A DNA stretch of 64,000 bases from Calothrix sp. NIES-2100 (GTDB taxonomy: Bacteria; Cyanobacteriota; Cyanobacteriia; Cyanobacteriales; Nostocaceae). Positions 2,622 through 60,339 of the stretch are shown in pieces. How positions within the stretch are numbered: position 1 is the first letter of the stretch; each line of letters begins with the position of its first letter. The notes under the pieces are model-generated. The model was not told where the DNA came from. It searched no databases and worked only from the letters and a program-made list of their open reading frames with translations. The DNA lies in contig AP018178.1 of the NCBI GenBank assembly GCA_002368195.1, positions 5,337,286 through 5,401,285 of the forward strand. The letters run 5' to 3'. The position numbers were made by a program, and so were the translations under genes.

Positions 2622-2639
2622 TCGTGCAATAGTATTAAT

Positions 2640-7841: not shown

Positions 7842-9239
7842 TTGTGTCAACAAGAAACTGTTAGTACACAACCTATGGAATTAAAACAAAATAGAACAAA
7901 GAGAAAAAGAGGAGTTATCTTAACTCCTCAAGGACTAAAACAATTACAAGAGGCGATTACATCCTGCGAGATAGCGGAAAATCAAGGTGAGCGCTTAACT
8001 TTAGAGCAACTATCGCACAGGATCAATATTTCGCCTAAAACTCTGAGCCGATTGTGGTCTTTAAGTAAAGGTGTAGATCAAAAAACTCTCAAATTATGTT
8101 TTAATGCCTTTAATTTAGAATTACAAGATGAAGATTATATCTTTTTGCAAGAGGAAAATGAAACAGAAATATTAGACTTTTTTGAGGAGAATTCACCAAT
8201 ATCAAAAAAAATTCCTTTGTCATATCCTAATGGTCCTGTAGCACTGGATTCTCCCTTATATATTGAACGTCCGCCTATCGAAGAACAGGTTTATCAAGAA
8301 GTTACTCAACCTGGTTGTGTAATTCGGATTCGCTCCCCTAGACAGATGGGGAAAACCTCTTTAGTCCTGCGTTTGTTAGCTTTTGCCAAAACACAAGGGT
8401 ATCGTACTCTGAAGATAAAATGCGACCAACTTGATGAAAACTATTTAAGCGACTTAAATAAGTTGTTACGTTGTCTTTGTCGGCAAATAGCTACAGAATT
8501 GGGAACAGATCCCAATATAGATGACAAATGGGATGATGAGATTGGTTGTAAATTGAGTTGTAGCTTATACATCCAAAACTATCTACTAAAGCAGAGTCAC
8601 AGCCCGATAGTTTTAGTGTTGAGTGAAGTTGACCGCTTTTTTGAGTATCCTCACATTGGGCGGGAGTTTTTTGCTTTATTGCGTTCTTGGTGCGATGAAG
8701 CACGGCAAAATCACCATTGGCAAAAATTGAGGTTAGTAGTAGTTTACTCTACAGAACAGTATATTTCTTTAGATATTAATCGTTCGCCATTTAATATTGG
8801 ACTACCTATTCGTCTGAAGGAATTTACCCAGGAACAAGTAGAAGAATTAGCTAGGCGATACGGCCTTTACTGGACTACGAGAAAAGAATCTAGCCAGTTG
8901 ATGTCTCTCGTAGGAGGTCATCCCGCACTGATTCAACTAGCTTTGTTTTATGTTTACTCTCAACCCATGACTTTAAAAGAGTTGATAGCCGAAGCGATCG
9001 CCAACGGTGGCATTTACCGTTATCATTTATGGCTACATTGGGTAAACCTGCAAGCCAATCCTGCTCTGCTCCAGATTTATACTGAGCTAGTAGCAGCAAA
9101 ACAAGGTATAGTTCTTGATCCTGCGGATGCTTACAAACTGGAAAGTTTAGGATTAATTCACTTTGAAGGCGATCGCATCCTACCGCGTTGCGAACTCTAC
9201 CGCACTTATTTTGCCAAGCAACTATCTAAAATGGTTTAA
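7842..9239 (+). CDS. AAA-like domain (PF14516-type) ATPase with N-terminal HTH-like segment, 465 aa. The true start is possibly at 7875 (MELKQN).
   Basis: The sequence YIERPPIEEQVYQEVTQPGCVIRIRSPRQMGKTSLVLRL... parallels the N-terminus of the downstream WD40 protein (YVIRQADAQLY...FCYVFNSRQMGKSSLLHR). The N-terminal 90 aa resemble an XRE-type HTH. Confidence 0.6.
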   Translation: MCQQETVSTQPMELKQNRTKRKRGVILTPQGLKQLQEAITSCEIAENQGERLTLEQLSHRINISPKTLSRLWSLSKGVDQKTLKLCFNAFNLELQDEDYIFLQEENETEILDFFEENSPISKKIPLSYPNGPVALDSPLYIERPPIEEQVYQEVTQPGCVIRIRSPRQMGKTSLVLRLLAFAKTQGYRTLKIKCDQLDENYLSDLNKLLRCLCRQIATELGTDPNIDDKWDDEIGCKLSCSLYIQNYLLKQSHSPIVLVLSEVDRFFEYPHIGREFFALLRSWCDEARQNHHWQKLRLVVVYSTEQYISLDINRSPFNIGLPIRLKEFTQEQVEELARRYGLYWTTRKESSQLMSLVGGHPALIQLALFYVYSQPMTLKELIAEAIANGGIYRYHLWLHWVNLQANPALLQIYTELVAAKQGIVLDPADAYKLESLGLIHFEGDRILPRCELYRTYFAKQLSKMV

Positions 9240-10078: not shown

Positions 10079-13000
10079 ATGAAATACCAAGTTGGTGGTA
10101 GTATACCTAGTGATGATCCGAGCTACGTTATTCGTCAAGCGGACGCACAACTTTATACGAGCTTAAAAGCAGGCGATTTTTGTTACGTCTTTAATTCTCG
10201 CCAAATGGGTAAATCATCGCTGTTGCATCGCACAAAAGAGCGTTTGATGCAAGAAGGTAATAGCTGCATTTATATAGATGTAACACGCTTGGGTAGTGAA
10301 GATACAAAGACCGAACAATGGTATAAAGGAATTATTATCTGTCTTTTTTACGGCTTAAATTTAGCGGAAAAAGTTAATTTTAAAGAGTGGTGGGAGTTGC
10401 AAACAGGACTTTCACCTGTACAGAAGCTAAATCAGTTTGTCGAAGAGGTATTACTTACCTGTGAACAAAGTGAGCGAATCGTTATTTTTATTGATGAAAT
10501 TGATAGTTTATTGAGTTTGAGTTTTTCGGTTAGTGACTTTTTTGCTTGGATTCGTCATTGCTATAACCAACGCGCCCACGACCCAAAATTTCAACGTTTA
10601 GGATTTGCAGTGTTTGGGGTAGCCAGTCCATCTGACTTAATTGCTGATAAACGCCGCACACCTTTCAACATTGGCACAGCAATTGAGTTATACGGGTTTA
10701 AACTAGAGGAAGCTACCCCATTACTCCCAGGTTTAGAATCAGTAGTTAGCCAACCTCAAATAATACTACAGAAGATTATGGACTGGACTGCTGGACAACC
10801 TTTTCTGACGCAAAAAATTTGTCAGTTAGTTGTGCAGACCGCCAGAGAAACACCGCAGAAAAAAATTGATTTACCGCCAGCTACAGAAGGGTATTGGATC
10901 GAGCAACTGGTAAAAAAGCAGATTATTCAACAGTGGAAAGCCAAGGACGATCCAGAACACCTGCGCACAATTCGCGATCGCCTCCTGTACAACGAACAAC
11001 GCGCCGGGAGGTTGTTAGGTATTTATCAGCAGGTGTTACAAGCTGAAGCTGGTAAACCTCTTGTAGCGATCGATGATAGTCGAGAACAAAAAGAACTATT
11101 GTTATCTGGGTTAGTTGAAAAAAACAACGGCTATCTCAAAATTAAAAATCCCATCTATCGCCATGTTTTCAATTCTGAATGGGTGGAAAGACAATTAGAC
11201 AACCTGCGTCCTTACTCGCAAATCTTCAATGGTTGGGTAGCATCAAATTATCAAGATGAGTCACGATTACTGCGGGGAAAGGCTTTAAAAGATGCTCAAA
11301 ATTGGTCGCTGGGTAAAAGTTTAAGTGATTTGGATTATAAATTTTTTGCTGCTAGTCAAGAATACGAAAAGCGCGAAATTCAAACAGCATTAGAAGCAGC
11401 ACGAGCCAAAGAAATAGAAGCACGACTAGCACAAGAGAAAAAAAGTGCTAAAGTGCAAAGATTGTTGCTAATTGGCATGTGTATTAAGTTGTTCATTTCT
11501 ATAGGTTTGGGATGCGGAATTTACATTTTGTATCGCCAATCCCAGAAAAGCGAAACTCAAGCCAAAACTAGCGAAATTCAAGCCTTGGTATCGGCTTCTG
11601 AAGGCATGTTCGCCTCAAATCGTAGATTAGATGCCCTGATACAAGCAATTAAAGCTAAACAGAAACTACAACAACTAGAAAAACCAAACATCAATATTGA
11701 GCGTCAGGTAAACAATGTATTACAACAAGCTGTTTATGGGGCAGATGAATACAATCGATTTTCTGGTCATACAGCAGCTGTGATGTCAGTAGATATTAGT
11801 CCTGATAGTTCTTTAATTGCTTCCGCCAGTATAGATAAAACCATCACGATTTGGCAGCGTGATGGTACAGCCGTAGCAACTCTCAAAGGTCATCAGGGAG
11901 CAATTAGATGTGTTAAATTTAGTCCGGACGGTCAAACACTAGCCTCGGCGAGTGAGGATGGTACTATTAAACTGTGGAAACAAGAAAGTACAGACGGCCA
12001 GTGGCACATTTATAAAACATTCAAAGGTCACACTGCTTCCGTTTGGGGAGTCGCCTTTAGTCCTGATGGTCAATTTTTAGCCTCTACTGGTTGGGATAGA
12101 ACGGTAAGATTTTGGCAGCAAGATGGTAAACTGCTAAAAACATTTGCAGGTTACAAAGGATTTTGGGGAGTAGCTTTTAGTCCCGATGGTCAAACTGTTG
12201 CGGCGGCAAATCTAGATGGGACTGTAAAACTTTGGCAACGAGACAACACAGGCTGGCAAAACCCCAAAATTCTACAAATTCTCCAAGGACATAAAGCTTG
12301 GGTTGAGGGAGTCGCTTTTAGTCCTGACGGTCAAACCATTGCTTCTGCGAGTGAAGATAAAACAGTGAAACTGTGGCGGCGAGACAGTAAATATGGTAGC
12401 TATCGACTGGATAAAACTTTGCAAGGTCATACTGCTGGGATTGCAGGAGTCGCCTTTAGTCCTGATGGTCAGACTATTGTCTCTGCCAGTCTCGACAAAA
12501 CTATGAAACTTTGGAACATTGATGGTACGGAATTGAGAACGCTCAGAGGACATAGTGCTTCTGTTTGGGGAGTAAGTTTCAGTCCTGATGGCAGCTTTAT
12601 TGCTTCGGCGGGTGCAGAAAATCTTGTCAGACTCTGGAAAAGTCAAAATCCATTCCATAACAGTGTAATTGCCCACAATGCGGGGATTTGGTCAATAGCT
12701 ATTACCGCTGACAGTTCCACCATTGGCACAGCCAGTCACGAAAATGTTGCCAAATTGTGGAGTCCTCAAGGTAAATTGCTCAAAACTTTGACTGAAACAA
12801 GTGTCATGTTCGATGTTTCATTCAGTGAAGATGGCAAGTTAGTGGCTCTTGCTGCCTACGATGATACAGTAAAAATCAAGCGGCGAGACGGTACTAATGT
12901 TGCTAGTCGCAAAGATACCCACGGTATCATCACAGGAGCGAAATTGAGTCCCGATGGTCAAGCGATCGCCATTGCTAATGTTGACAAAATGGCTCAATTA

Positions 13001-13636
13001 TGGTCATTAAAAAATCCGGCATTGCAGTTTCTCAAAGGACATCAGGCAGAAGTCTGGCAAGTAGTCTTTAGTCCCGATGGTAAAATGGTGGCGAGCGCCA
13101 GTGCTGATGGTACTGCCAAGGTGTGGACACTAGACGGGAAGTTGCGCTCAACCCTCGTCGGACATGAGGCGGCTGTGTGGATAGTTGGCTTTAGTCCCGA
13201 CAGTAAAATGGTAGCTACTGGCAGCGGTGACAATACCATGAAGTTGTGGACGGTGGATGGTAAGTTATTGCAAACTTTCATTGGTCACACAGGTGCAATT
13301 TGGGGAGTAGGGTTTAGTCCCGATGGCAAAATCATTGCTTCTGGTAGTGTGGATGCTACCATCAAACTTTGGAAGCTGGATGGTACGGAAATAACCACCC
13401 TTAGAGGTCATACTGCGGCTATTCGCAAAATTGCTATCAGCCGCGACGGCACTTTTCTGGCCTCAGGGGGTGATGATAACACACTGATGATCTGGAATTT
13501 ACCGCGTATTCTCAACTTAAATCCACTTCCTGATGCTTGCACTATTGTCCAGGACTATTTGAAAACTAACACCACAGTGGAAAAAGGCGATCACTCTTTA
13601 TGCCAATTCCATAACAAAGCAAAAGCATCGAGTTAG
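10079..13636 (+). CDS. STAND-type signalling protein: AAA-like NTPase domain, coiled-coil/TM linker, then about 14 WD40 repeats, 1185 aa.
   Basis: N-terminal P-loop-like NSRQMGKSSLL. A TM-like segment LLLIGMCIKLFISIGLGCGIYILY. Repeated GH..xVxxVxFSPDGxxxASAS.DxTxKLW units run from about 11760 to 13500. Confidence 0.85.
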   Translation: MKYQVGGSIPSDDPSYVIRQADAQLYTSLKAGDFCYVFNSRQMGKSSLLHRTKERLMQEGNSCIYIDVTRLGSEDTKTEQWYKGIIICLFYGLNLAEKVNFKEWWELQTGLSPVQKLNQFVEEVLLTCEQSERIVIFIDEIDSLLSLSFSVSDFFAWIRHCYNQRAHDPKFQRLGFAVFGVASPSDLIADKRRTPFNIGTAIELYGFKLEEATPLLPGLESVVSQPQIILQKIMDWTAGQPFLTQKICQLVVQTARETPQKKIDLPPATEGYWIEQLVKKQIIQQWKAKDDPEHLRTIRDRLLYNEQRAGRLLGIYQQVLQAEAGKPLVAIDDSREQKELLLSGLVEKNNGYLKIKNPIYRHVFNSEWVERQLDNLRPYSQIFNGWVASNYQDESRLLRGKALKDAQNWSLGKSLSDLDYKFFAASQEYEKREIQTALEAARAKEIEARLAQEKKSAKVQRLLLIGMCIKLFISIGLGCGIYILYRQSQKSETQAKTSEIQALVSASEGMFASNRRLDALIQAIKAKQKLQQLEKPNINIERQVNNVLQQAVYGADEYNRFSGHTAAVMSVDISPDSSLIASASIDKTITIWQRDGTAVATLKGHQGAIRCVKFSPDGQTLASASEDGTIKLWKQESTDGQWHIYKTFKGHTASVWGVAFSPDGQFLASTGWDRTVRFWQQDGKLLKTFAGYKGFWGVAFSPDGQTVAAANLDGTVKLWQRDNTGWQNPKILQILQGHKAWVEGVAFSPDGQTIASASEDKTVKLWRRDSKYGSYRLDKTLQGHTAGIAGVAFSPDGQTIVSASLDKTMKLWNIDGTELRTLRGHSASVWGVSFSPDGSFIASAGAENLVRLWKSQNPFHNSVIAHNAGIWSIAITADSSTIGTASHENVAKLWSPQGKLLKTLTETSVMFDVSFSEDGKLVALAAYDDTVKIKRRDGTNVASRKDTHGIITGAKLSPDGQAIAIANVDKMAQLWSLKNPALQFLKGHQAEVWQVVFSPDGKMVASASADGTAKVWTLDGKLRSTLVGHEAAVWIVGFSPDSKMVATGSGDNTMKLWTVDGKLLQTFIGHTGAIWGVGFSPDGKIIASGSVDATIKLWKLDGTEITTLRGHTAAIRKIAISRDGTFLASGGDDNTLMIWNLPRILNLNPLPDACTIVQDYLKTNTTVEKGDHSLCQFHNKAKASS

Positions 13637-14278: not shown

Positions 14279-16096
14279 ATGGTTCGTATTCTGCTAGTAG
14301 ATGAGCAAAAACGCCTTAGAAAATACTTGCACGCTCTATTAGATCCAGATTGTGATTTAGAGGTAATCGCCACGATTCAAAAAGGTAAGAGTGCGATTGA
14401 GCAAGTAGCTAGTTTACAGCCTGATATAGTCCTAATAGACATAGATACACTTGGCATAGATGGGGTGCAAGCCACCAAGACAATCTGTCAGCGATTTCCG
14501 CAGATCAAAGTTCTCGTGTTGAGCAGTAACGATCGAGATGAATATATCCATCAAGCCTTGGATGCAGGGGCGATAGGCTATCTGATCAAAAATGTATGTG
14601 CTGAGGAATTACGAGAGACAATTCGCTTTTTTTGTCAAGATTCTATTAAGTTGGAACATAAACTTCCACAACAATCTAATCTAAAAATTCCAGTATCAAC
14701 TTCAGTATCTGCAAACTCGGTCTTTAAAGAATCTGGCTTGAAAATTCCTGTAGTAGAGAAAGAACTTAACTTATCTGCTAATTCATCACAGTTCCAGTCA
14801 TTCAGAAAGTTCATACCGCCTCCTAGCAATCAAAAAGAAATGACTAGTCTATCAAATCAACCATCCCCTAAACAAATTAGCTGGTATCAATTACTCACAT
14901 TACTCATGATTGCTGTTGGTTGTACCACTGGTATTTATCTTCTTCGCCAGGCACTGAGGAAGCCGCTGCCATCATTGAACTACATACAACAACAGTCAAC
15001 ACTGATGGGCACAGAATTTAGCGGTAAAGTTAAGCCAGCTAAAATAGTGAAAATAGCTGCATCTATCCCTTCAGTAGTTGAAAAAATTAATGTGCAAATT
15101 GGCGATAAAGTTAATCTGGATCAACCCCTCATAGTTCTCAAAAACCCTGAGAGTGACAGAGAAATTGAACAAATTTTGCAGCAACGCCAAAATCTCCTAC
15201 AACAAGAACAAGCAGTACTTCAACAACAGCAAACTGCTAAACAAAAAGTTTTAATCTGGGAGCAGAAAATTACCGACATTAATCGTCAGGAAACGCCACT
15301 AGCTGCGAAAATAGCTGATGCAGATTTGGAGTTATCTTTAACTCAGAGTGAAGCTGATAAACTACCTTTACCCCAAAGACAGGATTCAGTGGAAAGAACT
15401 AAAGCAATTTACGAAAGAGCTGAATCAAGAGTACGCCGATTTGCACAACTTTATCAACAGGGTGCGATCGCCCAAGATCAATTGGAGCAAGCACAAGCAG
15501 ATCTCAAAGTTGCTAAAGCAGATTATCAAGTAGCTGAAACTGCTGCTGCTACCGCAAACAATCTAGAACTTGCCAAAAAACAAAAGTCTCAGTTACAACG
15601 TCAGGTATCCTTAGAACAACAAAAACTCAAGCGCCAAGAACTAGAGCAACAGTTACAAAATTTGCGCTTAGAGTCTCAACAAGCAACTGAACGATTAAAA
15701 TTAATCCGTGAACAATCAACTCAGCTTTTCCAGCGTCAGATGCCATCGGGAAATACTATAGTGAAGGCGACAAGTGCGGGAGTAGTAGTGCAAGTACCAG
15801 TGAAAATCGGCGATCAAATCTTCACTGGTAACCCCCTGCTAGAATTAGCCCAACTCAAGTCCCTCAACGTTGAAGTATTGGTTAATGCTCGGCTAATTAA
15901 CGCTCTGCGTCAAGGTCAAAAAGCCACCATTAAAGTAGGTATAGGAAAAACTGCTCAGAAGTTTGAGGGAAAAATCGTCACGATTAATCCCATACCCTCT
16001 GAGAACATGAATCACACTGTTGAGATCCAGTTTGAAAATCCTGATGATGCTTTACTAGTGGGGCAAATGGCAGCTATCCAGTTTTTACCAGATTAA
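14279..16096 (+). CDS. Response-regulator receiver (REC) domain fused to an HlyD-family membrane-fusion/periplasmic adaptor protein, 605 aa.
   Basis: N-terminus MVRILLVDEQ...DIVLIDIDTLGIDG...VLVLSSNDRDEYI...GYLIKN matches a CheY-like receiver. This is followed by a TM helix, a biotin-lipoyl-like segment (VEKINVQIGDKVNLDQPLIVL), a long Q-rich coiled coil and a C-terminal beta-barrel (VKIGDQIFTGNPLLEL). Confidence 0.8.
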   Translation: MVRILLVDEQKRLRKYLHALLDPDCDLEVIATIQKGKSAIEQVASLQPDIVLIDIDTLGIDGVQATKTICQRFPQIKVLVLSSNDRDEYIHQALDAGAIGYLIKNVCAEELRETIRFFCQDSIKLEHKLPQQSNLKIPVSTSVSANSVFKESGLKIPVVEKELNLSANSSQFQSFRKFIPPPSNQKEMTSLSNQPSPKQISWYQLLTLLMIAVGCTTGIYLLRQALRKPLPSLNYIQQQSTLMGTEFSGKVKPAKIVKIAASIPSVVEKINVQIGDKVNLDQPLIVLKNPESDREIEQILQQRQNLLQQEQAVLQQQQTAKQKVLIWEQKITDINRQETPLAAKIADADLELSLTQSEADKLPLPQRQDSVERTKAIYERAESRVRRFAQLYQQGAIAQDQLEQAQADLKVAKADYQVAETAAATANNLELAKKQKSQLQRQVSLEQQKLKRQELEQQLQNLRLESQQATERLKLIREQSTQLFQRQMPSGNTIVKATSAGVVVQVPVKIGDQIFTGNPLLELAQLKSLNVEVLVNARLINALRQGQKATIKVGIGKTAQKFEGKIVTINPIPSENMNHTVEIQFENPDDALLVGQMAAIQFLPD

Positions 16097-16102: not shown

Positions 16103-17623
16103 ATGAAGAGACTATCTGTATTATTGACTACGGAAGGGACTTATCCCTACCATAAGGGCGGTGTAAGTACCTGGTGTGATGTTTTAACCAGCCAACTTCC
16201 AGAGGTAGATTTTCATGTGTTGGCGATCGCGGCTAATCCTTACCTAGAGTTACGCTATAAATTACCCAATAATGTCAAGCAACTGGTGAAAGTGCCCTTG
16301 TGGGGAACAGAAGACCCTGTAGAATACTCTTGGCGCTTCCCCTTTTCTCAGGCATTTAAAAGCAAAATAGAAACCACAAACAGGGTAATTGCAACTCAGT
16401 TTATCCCTTTATTTGAGGGTTTTTTAACAGCCATCCTCTTGCACGAACCAGATATCGAGCAGTTGGCCCACCTCATACTGGCAATTTATAAATATTTTCA
16501 GCGTTATGACTACCACAAGACAATGGAGTCGAAACTGGTATGGTCAACTTTTCAACGTTTAACCGCTACTCATTGGCATCCGTTAGTTAATCCTAATGCC
16601 GTCAAACTCATAGAACAGACGGAAGCCATGCGCTTACTCTATCGGTTTCTCATTCCCATTCATATCCCTGTTCCTAAAACCGATATCACCCATGCCTCAT
16701 CTGCTGGTTTTTGTGGCTTACCCTGTGTTATTGCCAAGTTAGAAAGAGGTACTCCTTATCTGCTCACAGAGCATGGTATCAATATTCGAGAGCAGTATTT
16801 AAATTTAAATCGCAGTATTCCCTCCCTATTTGTGCGTCAATTCTTATATCGATTAATGGGGGCGGTAGTTAAAGTCAACTATCACTACGCCGATCAAATT
16901 TCTCCTGTTTGTGAATACAATGCTCGTTGGGAACGTTGGTGGGGGATACCTGACCATAAAATCAAGGTGATTTACAACGGAGCCGATCCAAATATCTATC
17001 ATCCTACCCCAACCGTCGCTAAAGAACGACCTCAAGTCATGAACATGGGCTTGATTTTTCCTCTCAAAGGACAACTAGATTTGATCGCCGCAGCCGCTAT
17101 TGTCCGAGAGAAAATCCCCAATGTGGAATTTCGCTTTTATGGTCGTCCTTCCGATGAAAAATATTTTGCTCAATGTCAAGAATTAGTTCGCACCCATAAT
17201 TTAGAAGCAAATATCAACTTTGCCGGATTTACTAGCGAGCCTTGGCGAGCTTACAGTGAGGCAGATGTAGTGGCTATGTCGAGTATTTCTGAGGGCTTCC
17301 CTTATGCTCTCATTGAAGCCATGCTTTCCGGGGCTACCATTGTTTCTACGGATGTCGGCGGTGTCAGCGAAGCTTTAGGTGATACCGGATTACTCGTACC
17401 AGCCCATCGTCCTCAAGCCCTAGCTGCGGCGATTTTGCAGCTTCTAGAGTTACCCGAAACTGATAGGCGGAAATTTGGCCAGTTAGCCCATGAACGCGCC
17501 CTCAAGTTATTTACTCAGCAAAAATTCTTAGATGCACACATGGATAGTTATTACAACCTCATGAAACAAGTAAAAACAGACACAACTTCTATGAAAGAGT
17601 TGGCGATCGCATCTTCTAAGTAG
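16103..17623 (+). CDS. GT4-family glycosyltransferase with DUF3492-like N-terminal domain (PelF-like architecture), 506 aa.
   Basis: The C-terminal EGFPYALIEAMLSGATIVSTDVGG is the GT4/Glycos_transf_1 E-x7-E region. About 280 aa of non-GT N-terminal domain precede it, as in PelF-type enzymes. The gene starts 7 bp after the HlyD-fusion stop. Confidence 0.75.
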   Translation: MKRLSVLLTTEGTYPYHKGGVSTWCDVLTSQLPEVDFHVLAIAANPYLELRYKLPNNVKQLVKVPLWGTEDPVEYSWRFPFSQAFKSKIETTNRVIATQFIPLFEGFLTAILLHEPDIEQLAHLILAIYKYFQRYDYHKTMESKLVWSTFQRLTATHWHPLVNPNAVKLIEQTEAMRLLYRFLIPIHIPVPKTDITHASSAGFCGLPCVIAKLERGTPYLLTEHGINIREQYLNLNRSIPSLFVRQFLYRLMGAVVKVNYHYADQISPVCEYNARWERWWGIPDHKIKVIYNGADPNIYHPTPTVAKERPQVMNMGLIFPLKGQLDLIAAAAIVREKIPNVEFRFYGRPSDEKYFAQCQELVRTHNLEANINFAGFTSEPWRAYSEADVVAMSSISEGFPYALIEAMLSGATIVSTDVGGVSEALGDTGLLVPAHRPQALAAAILQLLELPETDRRKFGQLAHERALKLFTQQKFLDAHMDSYYNLMKQVKTDTTSMKELAIASSK

Positions 17624-17857: not shown

Positions 17858-18706
17858 ATGAATCTTTATTTCAAAACAACACGCAAATTGATTATGAGTG
17901 GTTTATTGACAGCAACACTTGCTTGTAGTAATGGGATTAAGCCAGAAACTGCCACGGCTCAAACTAAAATTCTCATCCCTCTTTATTCCTATCCTACCTG
18001 GTACAATCCCGAAGCTTATACTTGGCCGAAAATAGCTGCGGCTGCAAGTCAAGTCCCGATTACTGCCATTATTAATCCCAATAATGGCCCCAATAATGGC
18101 CCACCAAACAGAGATTATGCCAGAGGTATTCAAGACCTCAAACAAGGGGGTGTAACAATCCTGGGTTATGTGGCTACGAATTACGGCAAACGCGACATCT
18201 CTCAAGTCAAAGCTGATATTGATATCTACGCTAAGCATTTTCATCTTGATGGGATTTTCTTAGATGAAGCCGCCAGTGGGGCAGACAAGCTCAACTACTA
18301 CCAGGAAATTTACAAACACATTAAAACTCAGCCCCAACTGAAAATGGTTGTACTCAACCAAGGTACTCAAACCGATCAAGGATATCTGACTCGACCAGCA
18401 GGGGATAACCTAGTCATTTTTGAAAATTATTCAACTGCTTGGAATCAATACCAGCCTCAGACCTATGTCAAAAATTACGAGTCTGGGCATTTTTCCTGTT
18501 TAATTCACACCGTTCCTGATGTTGCCACAATGAAACAACATATTAATCAGGCTGTGGCACGCAATATCCAATATATCTACATCACAGATGATAGCCCTGA
18601 TAATCCCGACAAAGATCCTTGGAACAGCTTACCCTCTTACTGGCAAGAGGAAGTAAATCATATCCGGTCTTTAAATCAAAAAGTTCAGAGGTCTTCAGGA
18701 AGCTGA
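17858..18706 (+). CDS. Spherulation-specific family 4 (spherulin-4-like, Sph3/GH135-like) protein with signal peptide or lipoprotein signal, 282 aa.
   Basis: ILIPLYSYPTWYNPEAYTWP..., GYVATNYGKRDISQVKADIDIYAKHFHLDGIFLDEAASG and the overall length match the spherulin-4 family pattern as recalled from memory. N-terminus LTATLACSNG. Confidence 0.6.
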   Translation: MNLYFKTTRKLIMSGLLTATLACSNGIKPETATAQTKILIPLYSYPTWYNPEAYTWPKIAAAASQVPITAIINPNNGPNNGPPNRDYARGIQDLKQGGVTILGYVATNYGKRDISQVKADIDIYAKHFHLDGIFLDEAASGADKLNYYQEIYKHIKTQPQLKMVVLNQGTQTDQGYLTRPAGDNLVIFENYSTAWNQYQPQTYVKNYESGHFSCLIHTVPDVATMKQHINQAVARNIQYIYITDDSPDNPDKDPWNSLPSYWQEEVNHIRSLNQKVQRSSGS

Positions 18707-20487
18707 ACTTGATAGATTCTCAAGTCATTATCTTCATAATAGATAGCCACCTCCTGTTCATGGAGGTGACGATAAGTCTCACACATCTGCAATGCTGTAA
18801 ATTGTAAGCTGGCACGACCTGCCGATGAGCGATAGTTACGATAGGTAGGGTCAGATAAAACAGAGTAGGGAAGCATTTGGCTTTCACTCAGTCCTGTAAC
18901 CAAGGGTCGTTTTTCGACAAAGATAAACAGATTTGGTACTGAATAACGGAAGTGAAAATCAGGTTTGCTGACTTTAGATCCATACTTCTCCACAAATAAC
19001 CCCAGATCCTCATACCAGCCAGCACCATAACTTTCTGCTAGTTGTTCAATGGGGGCGACAATCACCCAGCGCTTGATGGGGAATCTAACTCGTAGTTCTA
19101 GGGTTTTACGCGCAGCCATTTCATATTCGAGATAGCTGAGTTTCGGAGAAAGTGGCAACAAAAAGTTAATTGCGATCGCCAACATCAAAATCACGCAGAT
19201 AATCTCAGACCATAAACCTAATATCAGACTCAGCAACCAGCTGCTGGGGATTAACACCAGTCCCCAAAGCCAGCTTAGTCCTACAGGTAGTGTGACTAAA
19301 AAAGTGCTTTCCCATCCCAAGGGATTTTCCGGGAAAGCAAAGCCTAAAGCCAATATTATCCAACTAATAGTAACTACAGTTAGTGCTAATCTCCCTCCAC
19401 CAATGAAGCTGATTCCGCCGATGAATGCCAGAATCAGCAACGTTGGTTTAATAATTGCCACGATCGTTAAGCAGCAAACTGCATCAATCAACGCTTCTCG
19501 ACGATATTTACTTTTAGAAGCTTCCCAACCTCGTCCTAAACCTAAAACCAAAAACATAACTCCAATTTCTAAGTTATCCCCTGCCCATTGGCGGATTAAG
19601 GAGGAATTCAAACTTTGAGTTACTGTTGTTAGCCATTGCTGTAACCAAATCGGAGCAAATTCAGGAATATGTCGATGGGAAGTGAACAGATAAGCCCCTA
19701 AGCTACACATCGCACCAATAGCAGCTGTTTTATGCTGAGAAATCACACCGATACCATAGCCGACACTTAGCACCAATAGACAGCCTAAGAGGGGCCCCAG
19801 GAAGCGGATCACCTGCATGGCATCAATCGCACCCAACAGCGATAAGACGCTAGCTAAAGTAGAGAAGGCGGGAAAAGAGTGAATCTGTCCTGGCCAATCC
19901 CCTGCTATGAGTTGCCTGGTAGCCAGCAGAATACTATAACTATCTGGATTTCCCAAACGCAGTTCCTGCAAAGGATGCTCAAATCGCAGTAATACAGCAA
20001 ACGTCAGGATAACAGTGAGTAGCAGAACCTCCAGTATTGTTTGTGAGAAGGCGATCGCGATTACTTGCTGAGCGATCGCCAGTTGTTTTTTTCCCGCCTG
20101 CCAACTTCTATCAACAACCTGAAGAATTTTTGGTAAAAAGCCTTGATCTAGAGCATCTAACACAGCAAATCCTACCCTGTGGCATATCAGATTCAACTGC
20201 TTTTTAACACGCCAATCATGCTGTTGCAGCCAGGGTAGAAGCAAACAACCGCTATATAAAAGTACTAGAGTAAACCAGCTAAACAAATGCAAGGCACTCA
20301 ACAACCAAACCCCTATGAAAGTGACTAGCAACATTCGCGCCCAGCCACTTACTATTCGACTTGGCCAAGGCATTGTTTTCGGAAAAGTAAAAATTACGCT
20401 GGGCAGCCAGATAAACACAATGACAAGCACTATGGCTACCCATATAGTAGTGAGCAAATCAAAAATAAAGGTTTGCAGAACTAACAC
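18685..20487 (-). CDS. Polytopic membrane protein (at least 12 predicted TM helices) with about 150-aa soluble C-terminal domain, 600 aa. Function unknown.
   Basis: Long hydrophobic segments throughout. The 3' end overlaps the convergent spherulin-like gene by 22 bp. No recognisable catalytic motif. Confidence 0.55.
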   Translation of the reverse strand: MLVLQTFIFDLLTTIWVAIVLVIVFIWLPSVIFTFPKTMPWPSRIVSGWARMLLVTFIGVWLLSALHLFSWFTLVLLYSGCLLLPWLQQHDWRVKKQLNLICHRVGFAVLDALDQGFLPKILQVVDRSWQAGKKQLAIAQQVIAIAFSQTILEVLLLTVILTFAVLLRFEHPLQELRLGNPDSYSILLATRQLIAGDWPGQIHSFPAFSTLASVLSLLGAIDAMQVIRFLGPLLGCLLVLSVGYGIGVISQHKTAAIGAMCSLGAYLFTSHRHIPEFAPIWLQQWLTTVTQSLNSSLIRQWAGDNLEIGVMFLVLGLGRGWEASKSKYRREALIDAVCCLTIVAIIKPTLLILAFIGGISFIGGGRLALTVVTISWIILALGFAFPENPLGWESTFLVTLPVGLSWLWGLVLIPSSWLLSLILGLWSEIICVILMLAIAINFLLPLSPKLSYLEYEMAARKTLELRVRFPIKRWVIVAPIEQLAESYGAGWYEDLGLFVEKYGSKVSKPDFHFRYSVPNLFIFVEKRPLVTGLSESQMLPYSVLSDPTYRNYRSSAGRASLQFTALQMCETYRHLHEQEVAIYYEDNDLRIYQVQLPEDL

Positions 20488-21395
20488 AATAATTTACATT
20501 AATATCTCTTAGTCAATCAAAACTCAGCTAGCAGCAACTGTCAATTCAAGGGTTCTAGATATACACATTAAGGCTACTCTTGCAACCTTGATAATTGTAA
20601 ATTTAGTACACAATAGCGGAAATAAAGCCATCCCTCACAATGGCGCGAACATCTGATATGGTGAGCTTTTTGAATTCCGCACACCAGTACTAGGTTTTAA
20701 CCCCCAAGCTTATTTAAACATGGTAATTACCTATTCAAAGTTATTTTATCATTTTAAAATGAGGAACATATGAAGAAAGTAAAATTAGTGTTTTTACTTG
20801 TTTTAACCGAGACTTTATAGATAGTTTATTGATTCTTTATAGAAAGTGTAATATGTTGAAAACGGTAGTTTTTATTACATAAAATTTAGCTATTTATTGT
20901 AAACAGTCTGAAATAATACCAATAATTAACAAAAGATTTAAAAAAATGCAGTTTTATGTCAAAAAAATAAACTTGCACAATCTGGTTAAAAAACAGATCA
21001 GTAAATTTATCGAGGTGTAGTAACATCATATTTGCATTATGAATAAAACAACGAAAATTTATGTACTGGAAAATTTACCAAGAATTTATTTTTTAATAAG
21101 TATTTACGTAAGACAATATGGTTCAGATGCTCATCAGGTTGATTATGAATAAATAAGTTAGTTAATTTGAAAAGTATCCTAAAAATTCGCCAATACCATC
21201 TCTAAAAATAGATTTTCAATTCTCAAAAAAATCTAACGATTGAAACGTATTGGTTGAACATCTAAAGTTTCAACATCATTTCAGGATAGAGGGTGATTAG
21301 TTTCACTTCTAGCCAACTTTTTGATGTATACATGCTGAAAAATTTATTTTTTGAGGCAGACAAAAAAATTTCATTATCATTTAGGGAGAAAAAGA

Positions 21396-22606
21396 TGGCT
21401 AAAAAAATATTAGTAACCGGAGGAGCAGGTTATATTGGCTCCCATACAATCCGTCAATTAGGAGAAGCTGGCTATGATGTAGTGGTTTATGACAACCTCT
21501 CTACAGGTTCAGCAGCATCAGTAATTTATGGTGAACTAATTATTGGTAGTCTCGACGATAAAAATTTATTATCTCAAACATTTAGTCAACACAAATTTGA
21601 TGCAGTTTTGCATTTTGCAGCTCATCTATCTGTACCAGAGTCAGTAGTAAAACCTCTTGATTACTATACAAATAATACTTGTAATACCCTGAATTTATTG
21701 CATTGTTGTCAATTATTTGATGTAAAAAAAATAATTTTTTCTAGTACAGCTGCGGTTTATGGTCAACCTGAGGAATATCCCGTAACAGAGTTATCACCGA
21801 CCAAACCCATGAATCCCTATGGTCGTTCCAAGCTGATGAGCGAACAAATTATCCAAGACTTTGCGCAAGCATCTGGATTAAAATACGTGATTTTACGTTA
21901 CTTTAATGTCGCTGGAGCAGATACTACAGGAAAGTTAGGTCAGTCTGCCAAGAAAGCAGAACACTTAATTAAAGTGGCTTGTGATGCAGCTTTAGGTCGT
22001 CGTCCCTGTGTGAATATCTTTGGAACAGACTTTCCCACCGCAGATGGAACGGGAATTAGAGATTACATCCATGTGGAAGATTTAGCTACAGCCCATGTTG
22101 ATGCGTTGCAGTATCTCGAAGCAGGAAATGACAGTCAAATATTCAACTGTGGTTATGGTCAAGGCTATAGCGTGCGGGAAGTCTTAAAGATGGTGCAGAA
22201 AATCTCTGGAGTAGACTTTCCTGTAATTGAAAACCAACGACGAGCAGGAGATCCGGCTTGTGTTGTAGCCAGCGCTGATAAAATTCGCACCATATTAGGT
22301 TGGGAACCCAAATACAACAATTTAGAAACCATTGTCTCTACAGCTTTAAACTGGGAGAAAAAATTAATTGCTTTGGCCACATTAGAAAAACAGCTAGCAC
22401 AACAGAATTTCCGGCTAGGTGCTCTATTGCTAGAAAACAAAATTATTTCATCGACCGAATTAGAACGAGCTTTACACGAGCAATTAGTCACTAAGCAGAA
22501 ATTAGGGGAAATATTGGTGCATAAGTCAATTATTTCCACTCAAATGCTGGAAAAATTTTTGTTAGAGCAAACTTGGAGAAAACAAGGCATTTGGTTGCAA
22601 GTGTAA
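21396..22606 (+). CDS. galE: UDP-hexose 4-epimerase (GalE/SDR family) fused to a C-terminal T2SSE_N/MshEN-like domain with two tandem c-di-GMP-binding-type motifs.
   Basis: Start chosen at MAKKILVTGGAGYIGSH (Rossmann GxxGxxG) with GGAGAAAAAG 6 bp upstream. The track ORF begins 103 bp earlier with no RBS. YxxxK epimerase core. The C-terminus has RLGALLLENKIISSTELERALHEQ and KLGEILVHKSIISTQMLEKFLLEQ (22412..22560), which fit the RLGxxLLxxGxIxxxxLxxALxxQ MshEN motif. Confidence 0.8.
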
Positions 22607-22829: not shown

Positions 22830-25800
22830 ATGAGTAATGATCTGTTGATAATCGACCTCGAAGAGGTATTAAAAAGAGCAATAAATAACATTAGCGAATT
22901 CTTTACATCTGCTGAGTATGCGCAGAAAATGAATTTAGCATTTGGAGAAAAGTGGGATCAAGAGAAAGCCAAGAAGGTAATTGCGGGAATCATCAACAAT
23001 ACAAACCTCCCAGAAATTCAAGTAGTTGACTCTTTAGAAATAAATGGTGGACAAGGAGCTTTTGGGAGTTTTAACCAGACAATTTATTTATCAAAAGCGC
23101 TTTTAAATGATGCAGTCAAAAGTGTTGATGTCCTGATAGAAGAACTAGGGCATTTTATAGATTCGCAGATAAATATTCAAGATGCACAGGGCGATGAAGG
23201 AGCAATTTTTGCCGCAATCGTCCAAGGTAAAGAGCTAACTCAAACTCAACTCTTAGGGTTGAAAAGTGAGAACGATACAACAAATGTCATCATCAATGGA
23301 GAAGCCAGAACATTAGAGCTAGCAGCTACCTACGGTAATATTAGCCTCGATGGTAACTTAAGTGATTGGACATCAGCAGAGAGATTAGATTTTCTTCCTG
23401 GAACAGGAATACCAGGATACGAAATCTATGGAAAGTATGCAGGAGATGCTTATGTATTCGCCTTGAAATCGGATACCCAAGCGATAGGTGCGGGCACAAC
23501 ATTCTGGCTAAATACAGACAGAAATGCGAGTACAGGTTATCAAATATTTGGTCAGACTGGAGTAGGAGGAGCCGAATATAACGTTGATTTCTTTACAGAT
23601 AATGTACCCTCTTTATACACAGGAGGAGCCGGAGCCAATTTGGTCGGTGGTTCTTTAAACTATGCCTATGGTACTAATAATCAAATAGTTGAATTCGCCG
23701 TTCCAATAGCACTTTTAAATGGAGCGCCACAAGCAATTGATGTTTTGACGGATATTAATAACCAAACATTTTTACCGTCTAATTATTCATCTCAAAAATA
23801 TACGGTTTCTGTTTTACCACCAAGAACAGACTTTAGTAAGAAGGTTGGGATAGTATTTTCGGAAACTACAGCGAAAAATTTCTTTCAAGATAAAGCCTAT
23901 ACCCAACTCTTCCTGTCGATGCAAAGCCAAGCAATGCAGGCGGGTATTCCCTTTGATATTCTCACAGAGAATGACTTAACAGACCTCAGCAAGGTTGTTA
24001 ATTATGATGCGCTGATATTTCCTTCTTTCCGAAATGTACCTCTGGCGAAGCTGGATGCAATTCAAAATACACTCACACAAGCCGTCTACAAATATAATAT
24101 TGGACTGATTACAGCTGGAGACTTTTTAACTAACGATGAAAATAATAATGCTTTAGCCGGAGATTCCTACATCCGGATGAAGCAGTTGTTGAATGTGACT
24201 AGAACTGGTGGCGGTGGGCCAGTCAATGGTGTTCTCAACGCTGAGGATATTGCTCATCCAGTGATGCAAGGTTATTCTACGGACGAGGCGATTCGTAGTT
24301 ATAACGGCATCTTTTTTAATAGCTATGGTGATGCAGATAGTACAGACAATAAAACACCCATAGTTCTCGCAGATTTTTTGGTAAATGGGCAGAAAAATAA
24401 TGCTGTACTAGCAACACAAACCGGTGGTAGAAACGTCCATTTTGCCACTGAAGGGTTCATGGGAGATAACAATTTACTGTGGAAAGCATTGCAATGGGCT
24501 GTTCTTGATAACAAACCCAAAGTAGCGTTAAACATGAGCCGGGATGCAAGTATATTTGTTTCGCGGACTGATATGGATCAGTCTCAGGAAGCTGAGGATG
24601 TGAATCCGGTGGGAACTACTCCAGGGATTTACGATCGCCTGCTGCCGACTCTGACACAATGGAAAAACGACTATAATTTTGTCGGGTCATACTACATCAA
24701 TGTGGGTAACAATCCAGCAAATGGGCAAGTGACTGACTGGACTGTCTCCAAGCCTTACTATAATCAAATCCTGGCTCTACAAAACGAAATTGGTACCCAC
24801 TCTTATACTCACCCCGAAGACACAAATCAGAACACCTATAAAGAAAATAATGCGTCGGCTCCTATAACTCCCACTCTCACTGATGCACAATATGCTACTA
24901 AGTTGGAGTTTGAATTTAACCAATCACAATTAGTCATTGAGCAACAGTTAGGAATTCAAGTTTCAGGCGCAGCGATTCCCGGCGCACCAGAAGGTTTAGG
25001 AGTTTCCCAAGAGCTTCAGAAATACCTATCCTATGTTTCTGGTGGTTATGCAAGTGTAGGTGCAGGTTATCCCAGTGCTTTTGGCTTTATGTTTCCGGGT
25101 AAGGATTATGTCTATTTAGCCCCGAACATGTCCTTTGATTTTTCGCTGGTAGAGTTTCGCAAGTTAACAACACAGCAAGCGGAAGCAGAATGGCTTAAAG
25201 AATATACTGGTTTAACCAATCATGCAGCCCAAGCTATCATTCATTTTCCTTGGCATGATTATGGCCCTACAGCGTGGGATACTAGTCCAGAGGATAATCT
25301 ACCCTCGCCTTACAATCAGGCAATGTTTACTAATTTCCTTGCCAGAGCATACAAGGATAATACAGAGTTTATTACCGCGTTAGATTTAAGCGATCGCATC
25401 AGAACTTTTGAGAAATCACAATTAACTATTGATTATCCCAGTGCAAATACTATTACTGCTACTGTTGCAGGAGTTACTAATGTAGGGACTTTTGGTTTAA
25501 ATATCGATCCAACTCAAACCATTAAAAGTGTGAATGGTTGGTATGCCTACGATAAAGATACGGTATTCTTACCAGCTAATGGCGGTCAATTTACAATCAA
25601 TTTGGGAACTCTTCAAGATGATGTGACCCATATTACTGACCTACCAATGCGTGGCGAATTGAAGTCTGTTATCGGTAATGGCACTGATTTAGAATTTACA
25701 TTCTTTGGTGAGGGTAAAGTTGTCTTAGATTTAAAAAATCCCACTGGATTGAATATTGTCACTCAAGGTGCAAGTAGTACGACTCTCAACGGTGAGATTC

Positions 25801-27092
25801 TCGAGATGAATTTTAGCGGTCTGAGTCTACACACTGGCAAAGTGACATTAGCTCCAGATACTCCCCCAACAGTAGCTAACCCAATTGCCGATGTCAGCGT
25901 ACTTGAGGATGCAGCAGATACTGTAATTAATTTAAGTAATGTCTTCACAGATATTGATAACGCTGTTACTGGCATTACTAAGACAGTTAAAGCTAATAGC
26001 AATAGTGGCTTAGTTAATGCCAGCATTGTTAACAATAATCTGACTCTGGATTATCTACCGAATCAATTTGGGACTGCGACAATTACTATTACTGGTACAT
26101 CTAATGGCAAAACTGTTGATGATACCTTTACAGTCAACGTTGCGCCTGTGGATGATGCGCCGACTGTGGTTACTCCAATTGCTGATGTTATTGTTAATCA
26201 AGGTTCTGCTAACACTAATATTAATTTAGGTAGTGTCTTTACTGATATAGATAACGATGCTGCGGCGATTACTAAGTCAATTGTCACCAATAGCAATAAC
26301 ACCTTGGTGAATGCCTCAATTGTGGGTAATTCTTTAACCTTGCAATATTTACCCAATCAATTTGGTAATGCGCAAGTGACTGTGCGTGGTACATCTGGCG
26401 GTAAAACAGTTGATGATACTTTTAGTGTCACTGTTAACCCTGTGGGCAATATCATTAATGGTACTGCTGCAAACAACTCTCTTTTAGGTACTTCAGGTAG
26501 AGATATCATTAGCGGATTTGGTGGTAATGACACCATAGATCCTAGAGAGGGTAATGATGTTGTTTATGGTGGCGATGGTAACGATTATGTTTTGGGAAGT
26601 TTAGGGGATGATTTAATTTATGGGGACGCTGGTAACGATACGTTATTCGGTGGCTCAAATAACGATACCCTTACTGGTGGTAAAAATAGTGACCGATTAG
26701 TTGGTGACTCAGGAATTGACACTCTGATTGGTGTCAACCCCAATGATACTTTAGCTGGAGCAGGAGAAATTGATACCTTAACTGGTGGTACTCAAGCTGA
26801 TTTATTTGTTCTCGGTGATAGAACTAAGGCTTACTACAATGATGGTAATAATCTTAGCTCTGGCACGGGTGACTATGCTCTAATTACAGACTTCAGTACC
26901 TTTGAGGGAGATAAAATCCAACTTTTTGGTAGCGCCGCCAACTATAGAATCAATAATCTTTCATTTAGTTTATCATTGGGCTTCCATAGCGCGCTTTACT
27001 TAAGAACTGGCGGTCAGGATGAGCTAATAGGAGCGATTCAAGGATTTAATAGCCTGAGTCTTACTAGTAGCAGTTTCAGCTATGTGAGCTAA
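22830..27092 (+). CDS. Giant secreted multidomain protein, paralogue 1 (1420 aa). Conserved N-terminal module, NodB-like metal-dependent deacetylase/esterase motif, Ig/FN-like segment, 2 cadherin-like (DDAP-type) repeats, RTX nonapeptide Ca-binding repeats, conserved C-terminal domain.
   Basis: [12 protein letters not shown] (H-S-x-x-H NodB motif 2). Repeats [18 protein letters not shown]...[13 protein letters not shown]. GGxGNDxLxG-type repeats GFGGNDTIDPREGNDVVYGGDGNDYVLG. No N-terminal signal peptide (T1SS-type substrate expected). Confidence 0.8.
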   Translation: MSNDLLIIDLEEVLKRAINNISEFFTSAEYAQKMNLAFGEKWDQEKAKKVIAGIINNTNLPEIQVVDSLEINGGQGAFGSFNQTIYLSKALLNDAVKSVDVLIEELGHFIDSQINIQDAQGDEGAIFAAIVQGKELTQTQLLGLKSENDTTNVIINGEARTLELAATYGNISLDGNLSDWTSAERLDFLPGTGIPGYEIYGKYAGDAYVFALKSDTQAIGAGTTFWLNTDRNASTGYQIFGQTGVGGAEYNVDFFTDNVPSLYTGGAGANLVGGSLNYAYGTNNQIVEFAVPIALLNGAPQAIDVLTDINNQTFLPSNYSSQKYTVSVLPPRTDFSKKVGIVFSETTAKNFFQDKAYTQLFLSMQSQAMQAGIPFDILTENDLTDLSKVVNYDALIFPSFRNVPLAKLDAIQNTLTQAVYKYNIGLITAGDFLTNDENNNALAGDSYIRMKQLLNVTRTGGGGPVNGVLNAEDIAHPVMQGYSTDEAIRSYNGIFFNSYGDADSTDNKTPIVLADFLVNGQKNNAVLATQTGGRNVHFATEGFMGDNNLLWKALQWAVLDNKPKVALNMSRDASIFVSRTDMDQSQEAEDVNPVGTTPGIYDRLLPTLTQWKNDYNFVGSYYINVGNNPANGQVTDWTVSKPYYNQILALQNEIGTHSYTHPEDTNQNTYKENNASAPITPTLTDAQYATKLEFEFNQSQLVIEQQLGIQVSGAAIPGAPEGLGVSQELQKYLSYVSGGYASVGAGYPSAFGFMFPGKDYVYLAPNMSFDFSLVEFRKLTTQQAEAEWLKEYTGLTNHAAQAIIHFPWHDYGPTAWDTSPEDNLPSPYNQAMFTNFLARAYKDNTEFITALDLSDRIRTFEKSQLTIDYPSANTITATVAGVTNVGTFGLNIDPTQTIKSVNGWYAYDKDTVFLPANGGQFTINLGTLQDDVTHITDLPMRGELKSVIGNGTDLEFTFFGEGKVVLDLKNPTGLNIVTQGASSTTLNGEILEMNFSGLSLHTGKVTLAPDTPPTVANPIADVSVLEDAADTVINLSNVFTDIDNAVTGITKTVKANSNSGLVNASIVNNNLTLDYLPNQFGTATITITGTSNGKTVDDTFTVNVAPVDDAPTVVTPIADVIVNQGSANTNINLGSVFTDIDNDAAAITKSIVTNSNNTLVNASIVGNSLTLQYLPNQFGNAQVTVRGTSGGKTVDDTFSVTVNPVGNIINGTAANNSLLGTSGRDIISGFGGNDTIDPREGNDVVYGGDGNDYVLGSLGDDLIYGDAGNDTLFGGSNNDTLTGGKNSDRLVGDSGIDTLIGVNPNDTLAGAGEIDTLTGGTQADLFVLGDRTKAYYNDGNNLSSGTGDYALITDFSTFEGDKIQLFGSAANYRINNLSFSLSLGFHSALYLRTGGQDELIGAIQGFNSLSLTSSSFSYVS

Positions 27093-60210: not shown

Positions 60211-60339
60211 AAATATGCATATAGATAGATGAAACTATAAATCAAGTATAAGTATTATAAAATACCAGAATATATCCCTCTAGACTCAAAAAACCTTGAA
60301 ATTTGCTCGGCACGTTTAGATGGGGTTACAAAAACCTGG

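Follow-up and report, generated by a model that had tools for sequence, protein, structure and literature searches.

A receiver domain fused to an HlyD-type adaptor and encoded beside a PelF-type glycosyltransferase in Calothrix sp. NIES-2100

Introduction

What might a receiver domain control when it is fused to a periplasmic adaptor, and which machine in the inner membrane would such an adaptor serve? This question is raised by a gene of Calothrix sp. NIES-2100 (14279..16096, + strand; coordinates refer throughout to the window, i.e. the whole stretch of 64,000 nucleotides that was analysed), an open reading frame (ORF) running from ATG to TAA and encoding a 605-aa protein with Pfam receiver (REC) and HlyD domains, in which a REC domain, a transmembrane (TM) helix and a membrane fusion protein (MFP) moiety follow one another. 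The protein probably acts as the adaptor (co-polymerase) in a synthase-dependent secretion system of cyanobacteria that is Pel/galactosaminogalactan (GAG)-like, with the receiver as its regulatory input, rather than part of a drug pump or of a protein-secretion system. The evidence comes from the intact active site of the receiver, the fold of the adaptor, and a conserved gene order in which the adaptor gene is followed by genes for a PelF-type glycosyltransferase and, in most orthologous loci, a MOP-fold membrane protein.

Domain organization of the fusion protein

The protein is 100% identical to the database entry 'response regulator [Calothrix sp. NIES-2100]', and its start codon is backed by the N-terminal alignment of more than 60 orthologues. 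Pfam recognizes Response_reg (aa 4-116), Biotin_lipoyl_2 (aa 257-287) and HlyD_D23/HlyD_3 (aa 408-597), and the AlphaFold2 (AF2) model built on 63 orthologues has a mean predicted local distance difference test (pLDDT) score of 74 and a predicted template modelling (pTM) score of 0.40, the latter because the domains are not packed on each other. The full REC-TM-adaptor layout recurs in approximately 75 protein clusters, and a frameshift or mis-called fusion is therefore rejected. The named clusters are all cyanobacterial (Calothrix, Nostoc, Pleurocapsa, Stanieria, Myxosarcina and Waterburya), and Chamaesiphon also carries the REC-adaptor architecture, as found among the matches listed in a family-alignment scan of genome contigs. 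The family is small, since an exhaustive phmmer search of 1.84 billion representatives yields only 61 proteins at E <= 1e-30. The fusion of a complete receiver to an HlyD-type adaptor, as claimed in the preliminary description of this locus, is thus borne out by Pfam, AF2, Foldseek and the conserved architecture.

The gene is preceded by an AT-rich intergenic region of 640 bp. Rfam gives no match in the whole window at the gathering threshold or in this upstream region at E values up to 1, and therefore no c-di-GMP (cyclic di-GMP) riboswitch is seen upstream of the fusion gene; the tRNA scan gave no match either.

Receiver domain

The receiver (aa 1-120; 14279..14638, + strand) is of the NarL/VraR/DesR type and shows the (beta-alpha)5 pattern in the AF2 model, its closest solved relatives being VraR, DesR and NarL of the NarL family. 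The match to Response_reg (PF00072) scores 78.3 bits against a cut-off of 30.2, with aa 4-116 spanning profile positions 1-111 of 111. Residues D8/E9, D54, S82, Y101 and K104 correspond to D12/D13, D57, T87, Y106 and K109 of CheY, where D54 (codon GAC, 14438-14440) is the phospho-acceptor and aligns with the acceptor region of VraR. Among the 63 orthologues aligned, D8 is present in 61, D/E9 in 61, D54 in 58, and S/T82, Y101 and K104 in all 63, and these phospho-chemistry residues are also kept in distant orthologues and in paralogues. The receiver is intact and conserved to the same degree as the adaptor domains, with a majority-residue fraction of 0.72 versus 0.70-0.78. The domain had earlier been described as apparently complete, with the caution that it might lack the acceptor Asp and Lys; the full-length Pfam match agrees with the former, and the alignment finds the acceptor Asp together with the Ser/Thr and Lys residues in this protein and in most of the family.

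The receiver could alternatively be a structural or pseudo-receiver, i.e. a constitutive cytoplasmic docking domain (e.g. for PelF) that acts independently of phosphorylation. Such a role is suggested by the five orthologues without Asp at position 54, all of which have Asn there and two of which also lack the acidic pair, by the Myxosarcina locus, where PelF is retained next door to an Asn variant, by the lack of a kinase linked to the fusion gene, and by receiver-less orthologues functioning with short N-terminal tails. However, 58/63 orthologues retain every one of the five phospho-chemistry positions and 63/63 retain Y101 and K104, including lineages with only 29-35% adaptor identity, and such conservation would be unexpected without phosphotransfer; moreover, the Myxosarcina locus has no nearby MOP or Spherulin4 gene and may be decaying. 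A non-phosphorylated docking domain is accordingly considered unlikely for the family as a whole, being possible for the five Asn variants and unlikely for the rest.

In the Myxosarcina sp. GI1 orthologue (L086, 10001-13251), Asn replaces the acceptor Asp and Pro occurs within the acidic pair. This locus keeps PelF, the MOP and Spherulin4 genes being absent within 10 kb, and may represent a degenerating or rewired copy.

Linker, membrane helix and periplasmic adaptor

The receiver is followed by a poorly conserved cytoplasmic linker (aa 121-200; 14639..14878, + strand), which is predicted to be disordered (pLDDT 23-34), has a majority-residue fraction of only 0.34 and varies in length from 50 to 130 aa across orthologues. 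A linker of this kind argues for a tethered cytoplasmic module rather than for rigid transmission through the membrane helix. The single TM helix predicted by AF2 (aa 202-226), together with the juxtamembrane motif Y220-x2-R223-Q-x-L-R/K-x-P229-L-P, occupies 14882..14983 (+ strand); the sole hydrophobic segment of the protein is aa 204-223, the only Kyte-Doolittle window above 1.6, and Y220, R223 and P229 are present in 63/63 orthologues.

The adaptor proper (aa 245-605; 15011..16093, + strand) is predicted to be periplasmic and comprises, in the AF2 model, a split lipoyl domain, a three-helix hairpin (residues 290-359, 365-393 and 399-485) and a beta-barrel reaching the C-terminus, the membrane-proximal domain being absent. 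Foldseek against the PDB returns adaptors only, namely EmrA (4tko, E 1.4e-18), MacA (3fpp), EmrAB-TolC (8zar), ZneB, AcrA and MexA, while phmmer against the PDB finds MacA and EmrA at approximately E 1e-5, and NCBIfam TIGR01730 (RND_mfp) scores below its cut-off (86 versus 94.9). The possibility that the HlyD part belongs to a non-transport coiled-coil family, which had been raised beforehand, is rejected by this fold match. The hairpin would be approximately 130 A long, as estimated, not measured, from its 87-residue third helix. Between helices 2 and 3, the hairpin tip carries an R-x3-L-x6-S/A motif (R387, L391, G395 and A398; 15437..15472, + strand; VRRFAQLYQQGAIAQD), which resembles the R-L-S/T (RLS) motif with which adaptors dock TolC-type channels and is therefore a candidate docking site. 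R387 is present in 61 of the 63 orthologues, L391 and G395 in all of them, and position 398 is occupied by Ser in 42, Ala in 13 and Pro in 8.

Two near-invariant motifs of the protein are unexplained. The first is the juxtamembrane Y-x2-R-Q-x-L-R/K-x-P-L-P, located where the membrane helix meets the periplasm (aa 220-235; 14936..14983), and the second is L-P-L-x-Q-R-Q-D-S at the break in the ascending hairpin helix (aa 361-370; 15359..15388), the most conserved segment of the protein with a majority fraction of 0.88. Both are also kept in the receiver-less, EAL-fused and AAA-fused relatives described below.

Conserved adaptor-PelF-MOP gene order

The gene directly downstream (16103..17623, + strand) encodes a PelF-type GT4 glycosyltransferase with DUF3492 and Glycos_transf_1 domains, which scores 149.9 bits over its full length against the cut-off of 100 of the NCBIfam equivalog NF038011 and is 26-35% identical to annotated pelF genes on plasmids. 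The glycosyltransferase of the preliminary description is thus specifically PelF, and it does adjoin the fusion gene, with a gap of 6 nt (TTTTTC) between TAA and ATG instead of the 7 bp given there. No terminator-like site was found between the two genes in promoter and terminator scans, which themselves are at background level.

Orthologous loci were compared by tblastn, every orthologous locus that could be read being counted, and PelF directly follows the adaptor gene in 11/11 of them across several cyanobacterial orders. Apart from the window, these loci are found in C. brevissima (L084), Stanieria PCC 7437 (L001/L002), a metagenome-assembled genome (L085), Myxosarcina GI1 (L086), a further locus at 31% identity (L087), Chamaesiphon (L004; 34% identity), Planktothrix (L092) and a metagenome contig (L093), together with a locus reached independently from the side of the MOP protein (L089). 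The gap between adaptor and PelF genes ranges from -1 to 37 nt in the window, L001, L004, L084, L085, L086, L087, L089, L092 and L093, the two genes overlapping in Chamaesiphon, and the adjacency spans Nostocales, Pleurocapsales, Chamaesiphon and Planktothrix down to approximately 29-31% adaptor identity. The tight coupling to the glycosyltransferase proposed earlier therefore holds.

The third member of the conserved set is a 515-aa MOP-fold membrane protein (36988..38535, + strand), a candidate inner-membrane exporter in the role of PelG according to synteny, AF2 and Foldseek. Proteins of this kind (513-520 aa) are encoded directly after PelF in L001, L004 (partial, at the contig end), L085, L087, L089, L092 and L093, and in Nostocales an insertion of the GalE and RTX genes displaces the MOP gene from PelF. 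The MOP protein matches no Pfam or NCBIfam family, yet its AF2 model is confident (pLDDT 82, pTM 0.79) and resembles MATE, WzxE and MurJ in Foldseek with TM-scores of 0.5-0.6. PelG is held to belong to the MOP superfamily, and the predicted fold and the gene position are what point to an analogy with PelG. The conserved four-helix cytoplasmic N-domain of the MOP protein (aa 1-65; 36988..37180; invariant W26, E33, G36, Y37 and D39) is a candidate docking site for PelF. This N-domain is also detectable in an uncharacterized protein encoded after pelF on a Deinococcus plasmid (L090, 10452-12002), the cluster of which contains alpha-1,4-polygalactosaminidase genes and has no adaptor.

No ABC, RND or outer-membrane-factor gene is present among the window ORFs of at least 110 aa or the two end-cut genes, in agreement with the earlier statement that an ABC/RND partner and a TolC-like gene are missing from the window, and Pfam and NCBIfam give no match to PelA, PelB, PelC, PelD or PelE among the window ORFs. 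Synteny favours the earlier suggestion that the adaptor finds its inner-membrane partner in the synthase complex itself. Of the two membrane proteins then proposed as partners, 36988..38535 is conserved and follows PelF elsewhere, whereas 18685..20487 is restricted to Nostocales and Planktothrix.

Alternative transport partners

The adaptor might instead belong to a type I secretion system exporting the three neighbouring RTX proteins, in which case the receiver would gate protein rather than polysaccharide secretion. Three giant RTX genes do lie 6.7-20 kb downstream of the adaptor gene on the same strand, an RTX-deacetylase accompanies the receiver-less adaptor in Planktothrix as well, and the adaptor resembles the HlyD/EmrA/MacA class in its long three-helix hairpin and the absence of a membrane-proximal domain. 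This function is nevertheless improbable, as an ABC exporter is absent from the window, including the vicinity of the RTX genes, and from the neighbourhood of the adaptor in 9/10 related loci, the sole adjacent ABC gene (L087) being transcribed divergently. Furthermore, RTX genes stand beside the adaptor in the window, L084 and L092 and are absent from L001, L004, L085, L087, L089 and L093, the Pleurocapsales and Chamaesiphon loci keep adaptor, PelF and MOP without an adjacent RTX gene, and PelF is both the tightest and the only universal neighbour of the adaptor.

It is more improbable still that the adaptor works with an ABC, MFS or RND efflux pump encoded elsewhere and shares no more than transcription with PelF, for, even though a paralogous REC-adaptor fusion (L007) sits beside FtsX-type permease and ABC genes and a receiver-less relative (P0075, 37% identity) occurs in an unrelated gene context, adaptors are normally encoded together with their transporter, PelF adjoins the adaptor with near-zero gaps in every orthologous locus across orders and identity levels, and the MOP gene completes the set of three in most of these loci.

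Variation at the N-terminus of the adaptor

An adaptor-only search retrieves receiver-less orthologues with short N-terminal tails from Planktothrix and other lineages, which keep the family motifs, including the juxtamembrane motif, and the adaptor-PelF-MOP gene order (L092 and L093). As these orthologues retain the same three genes, the receiver is an optional regulatory add-on, which modulates the machine rather than builds it. An exhaustive protein search further identified two relatives from this adaptor clade that are 34-36% identical, retain the family motifs and have other domains at the receiver position, namely P0234 (699 aa) with an N-terminal EAL domain and P0248 (729 aa) with an AAA_22 ATPase domain; a scan of metagenomes for the gene locus of P0234 gave distant adaptors only. 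EAL and AAA domains at this position are what a swappable cytoplasmic input module would predict.

Two more distant, paralogous REC-adaptor fusions were also observed. One of them (L007, 10001-14561; metagenome-assembled genome of Waterburya) is followed by genes for an FtsX-type permease and an ABC exporter and may be part of a phospho-controlled ABC tripartite pump, while the other (L003, 10001-11935) stands alone. Both have canonical receivers, approximately 48% and 40% identical to the receiver of the window, and their adaptor parts give no tblastn match below E 1e-6. That the receivers are more alike than the adaptors suggests module shuffling or a shared kinase.

Proposed mechanism

The core machine would consist of PelF as the cytoplasmic GT4 polymerase, the MOP protein in the place of PelG and the single-pass adaptor, the hairpin of which probably docks a TolC-like outer-membrane channel encoded elsewhere in the genome. 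The receiver would lie in the cytoplasm on its long flexible tether as the regulatory input, where an unlinked histidine kinase may phosphorylate Asp54 and thereby switch the machine on or off post-translationally. NarL-family receivers dimerise on phosphorylation. Because of this property and the flexibility of the tether, the most likely output would be dimerisation or oligomerisation of the receiver, or recruitment of PelF or of the cytoplasmic N-domain of the MOP protein. By analogy, these features suggest an Alg44-like design in which a receiver replaces PilZ and polysaccharide secretion is switched by phosphorylation, just as c-di-GMP switches the secretion of alginate through Alg44.

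Several observations weigh against this mechanism. The Asn acceptor in 5/63 orthologues and the existence of receiver-less orthologues imply that phosphorylation is not essential to the machine, and a histidine kinase is not consistently linked to it: only one related locus (L089) has one within 10 kb, a GAF-HisKA kinase 4 kb away, and the membrane PAS-GAF-HisKA-HATPase-REC hybrid kinase of the window (60241..64000, + strand; cut by the window end) is not adjacent to the cluster and lies 44 kb from the fusion gene. Taken alone, the charges around the membrane helix, which are +1 N-terminally and +3 C-terminally, do not support an N-in topology, the AF2 model of the fusion protein has a pTM of just 0.40 with its domains unpacked, the geometry of the hairpin is deduced solely from predicted helix lengths, the third residue of the tip motif is Ala (A398) in this protein, and a TolC-like gene is absent from the window. 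The MOP protein has no PelG match in Pfam or NCBIfam at E values up to 10 and no similarity to the annotated PelG of Sulfitobacter in hhalign, and no MOP-family transporter is known to us to use an HlyD-type adaptor.

More tentatively, the fusion proteins may form an undescribed class of response regulators with a trans-envelope adaptor as output, in which the phosphorylated receiver would license a PelF-MOP-adaptor-TolC conduit and REC, EAL, AAA or no domain would serve as interchangeable sensors; this wider reading is possible, and is held with less confidence than the assignment to a polysaccharide system.

Comparison with known systems

Alg44, the alginate co-polymerase of Pseudomonas and Azotobacter, is a PilZ-TM-adaptor (MFP) protein. 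Like the fusion protein, it combines a cytoplasmic sensor with a single membrane helix and a MexA/HlyD-like adaptor domain in the periplasm, and the synthase-dependent exopolysaccharide machine that needs it is encoded together with it (PMC8892547, PMC4436075). PelF is encoded 6 nt downstream of the fusion gene. The sensors differ, however, as that of Alg44 is PilZ (c-di-GMP) and that of the fusion protein, which has no Pfam match to PilZ, is a receiver (phosphorylation). The partner of Alg44 is the GT2 protein Alg8, whereas the partner candidates here are the GT4 protein PelF and a separate MOP-fold protein. The three-helix hairpin of the present adaptor is also very long and carries a TolC-type motif at its tip, whereas Alg44 is not known to have a hairpin of this kind and hands the polymer to AlgK/AlgE. 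The fusion protein may thus work like Alg44, yet it is not a member of that family and the two are not orthologues.

An HlyD-type adaptor gene adjoining a polysaccharide synthase gene, with the outer-membrane channel encoded elsewhere, is likewise found in the XcsA-XcsB-TolC system proposed for cyanobacterial cellulose, a model not yet validated, and in the BgsA-BgsB-TolC system for the mixed-linkage glucan of Sinorhizobium, where tolC has been shown to be required, XcsB and BgsB being HlyD-like (PMC12430437, PMC13438883). In these systems the c-di-GMP sensor is on the GT2 synthase and the adaptor is sensor-free, whereas here the adaptor bears the sensor, and PelF, a soluble GT4, would be the synthase alongside a separate MOP protein. 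The regulatory design, which had been called unusual, is therefore less so than claimed, with Alg44, XcsAB-TolC and BgsAB-TolC as precedents (PMC8892547, PMC12430437, PMC13438883).

The likeness to the Pel systems (PelABCDEFG in P. aeruginosa and PelDEADAFG in Bacillus cereus) consists of a PelF passing the equivalog cut-off, a MOP-fold protein of at least 12 helices at the PelG position, and hydrolase, deacetylase and UDP-GalNAc epimerase functions predicted in the cluster. On the other hand, PelD/PelE (regulation and scaffolding) and PelB/PelC (export) are apparently replaced by the receiver-adaptor and a presumed TolC-like channel, the hydrolase is GH135-like instead of a PelA hydrolase domain, and the protein at the PelG position cannot be recognized as PelG from its sequence. 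With HlyD, EmrA and MacA, of which EmrA and MacA are the best structural matches, the adaptor has in common the N-terminal membrane anchor, lipoyl domain, long hairpin, beta-barrel and lack of a membrane-proximal domain, and it differs from them in the absence of an ABC/MFS partner gene and in the 200-aa cytoplasmic extension containing the receiver.

Neighbouring genes and the candidate polymer

The gene following PelF (17858..18706, + strand) encodes a Spherulin4-family protein (PF12138, E 1.7e-54), a candidate Sph3/GH135-like hydrolase, which is also encoded in the orthologous clusters L001, L084 and L085. Spherulin-4 genes occur in bacterial GAG/Pel-like operons, and Sph3 is an endo-alpha-1,4-N-acetylgalactosaminidase (PMC7229062). 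Converging on this gene with an overlap of 22 nt, 18685..20487 (- strand) encodes a polytopic membrane protein of 600 aa, the C-terminal part of which is soluble and which matches no Pfam or NCBIfam family. It has a 77% identical orthologue in the same place in C. brevissima and a partial match at the edge of the Planktothrix locus, and is thus an accessory gene of some lineages only.

A GalE-type UDP-hexose 4-epimerase (21293..22606, + strand; TIGR01179, E 6e-143) contains a C-terminal tandem MshEN-type c-di-GMP-binding motif (NF053729, 51.5 bits versus a cut-off of 38), with the sequences RLGALLLENKIISSTELERALHEQ and KLGEILVHKSIISTQMLEKFLLEQ. Its true start is probably the ATG near 21395. 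Orthologues are present in L084 and L092, the MshEN region being kept in both C. brevissima and Planktothrix, and a second input through this motif is likely in Nostocales and Planktothrix, as judged from its sequence. With such a motif, GalE would be a sugar-nucleotide enzyme that senses a second messenger.

The three paralogous giant RTX-repeat proteins (22830..27092, 27348..32801 and 33003..36794, + strand; HemolysinCabind) have a CE4-like deacetylase region, for which the Polysacc_deac_1 match is weak in the window and reaches E 1e-7 in Planktothrix, which has one orthologue (L092, 2353-6282). The three proteins, whose C-terminus is of the type I secretion type, may be PelA/Agd3-like deacetylases that are secreted. 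Taken together, PelF, Spherulin4, GalE and the CE4-RTX proteins appear to parallel both the Uge3/Gtb3/Sph3/Agd3 set of GAG and the Pel system (PMC7229062), and the polymer would accordingly be a Pel/GAG-like, GalNAc-rich exopolysaccharide.

Upstream of the cluster are an IS605 OrfB/TnpB-type gene (3037..4206, - strand) and two genes for AAA_35 NTPases (7842..9239 and 10079..13636, both + strand), one of which is fused to approximately 11 WD40 repeats (STAND-like). A CBS-GAF-PAS-GGDEF-EAL protein cut by the window end (1..2645, - strand) is not adjacent to the cluster.

Implications for regulated exopolysaccharide secretion

This design was not found described in literature searches that covered REC-HlyD fusions, cyanobacterial PelF/DUF3492 and the output domains of response regulators, and the proteins are labelled in databases just as 'response regulator' or 'NarL/FixJ response regulator / AcrA'. 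In the phylum-wide survey of Pereira et al., the PilZ+HlyD architecture of Alg44 was reported absent from cyanobacteria, and the adaptor-PelF-MOP module was missed because PilZ together with HlyD was required (PMC4594306). As principles, both the placing of a sensor domain on an adaptor and the attachment of an adaptor to a synthase are already known.

Synthase-dependent exopolysaccharide systems are usually described as gated post-translationally by c-di-GMP, as through BcsA-PilZ, Alg44-PilZ, PelD and PgaCD. With a receiver wired onto the secretion adaptor, a two-component system would offer a second way to reach this control point, and the known outputs of response regulators would gain one that is anchored in the membrane and does not bind DNA. 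If REC, EAL, AAA or no domain can indeed be carried on one adaptor scaffold, the Alg44 principle would be extended to a family of sensor-adaptor proteins, and the system would be the first in which a MOP-family exporter is coupled to an HlyD-type adaptor. The locus also defines a compact cyanobacterial Pel-like module of adaptor, PelF and MOP protein, with GH135, GalE-MshEN and CE4-RTX proteins as accessories, in which the occurrence of both receiver-bearing and receiver-less orthologues makes domain swaps straightforward, and which provides a genetic handle on the GalNAc-type sheath or biofilm polymers of Nostocales and Pleurocapsales.

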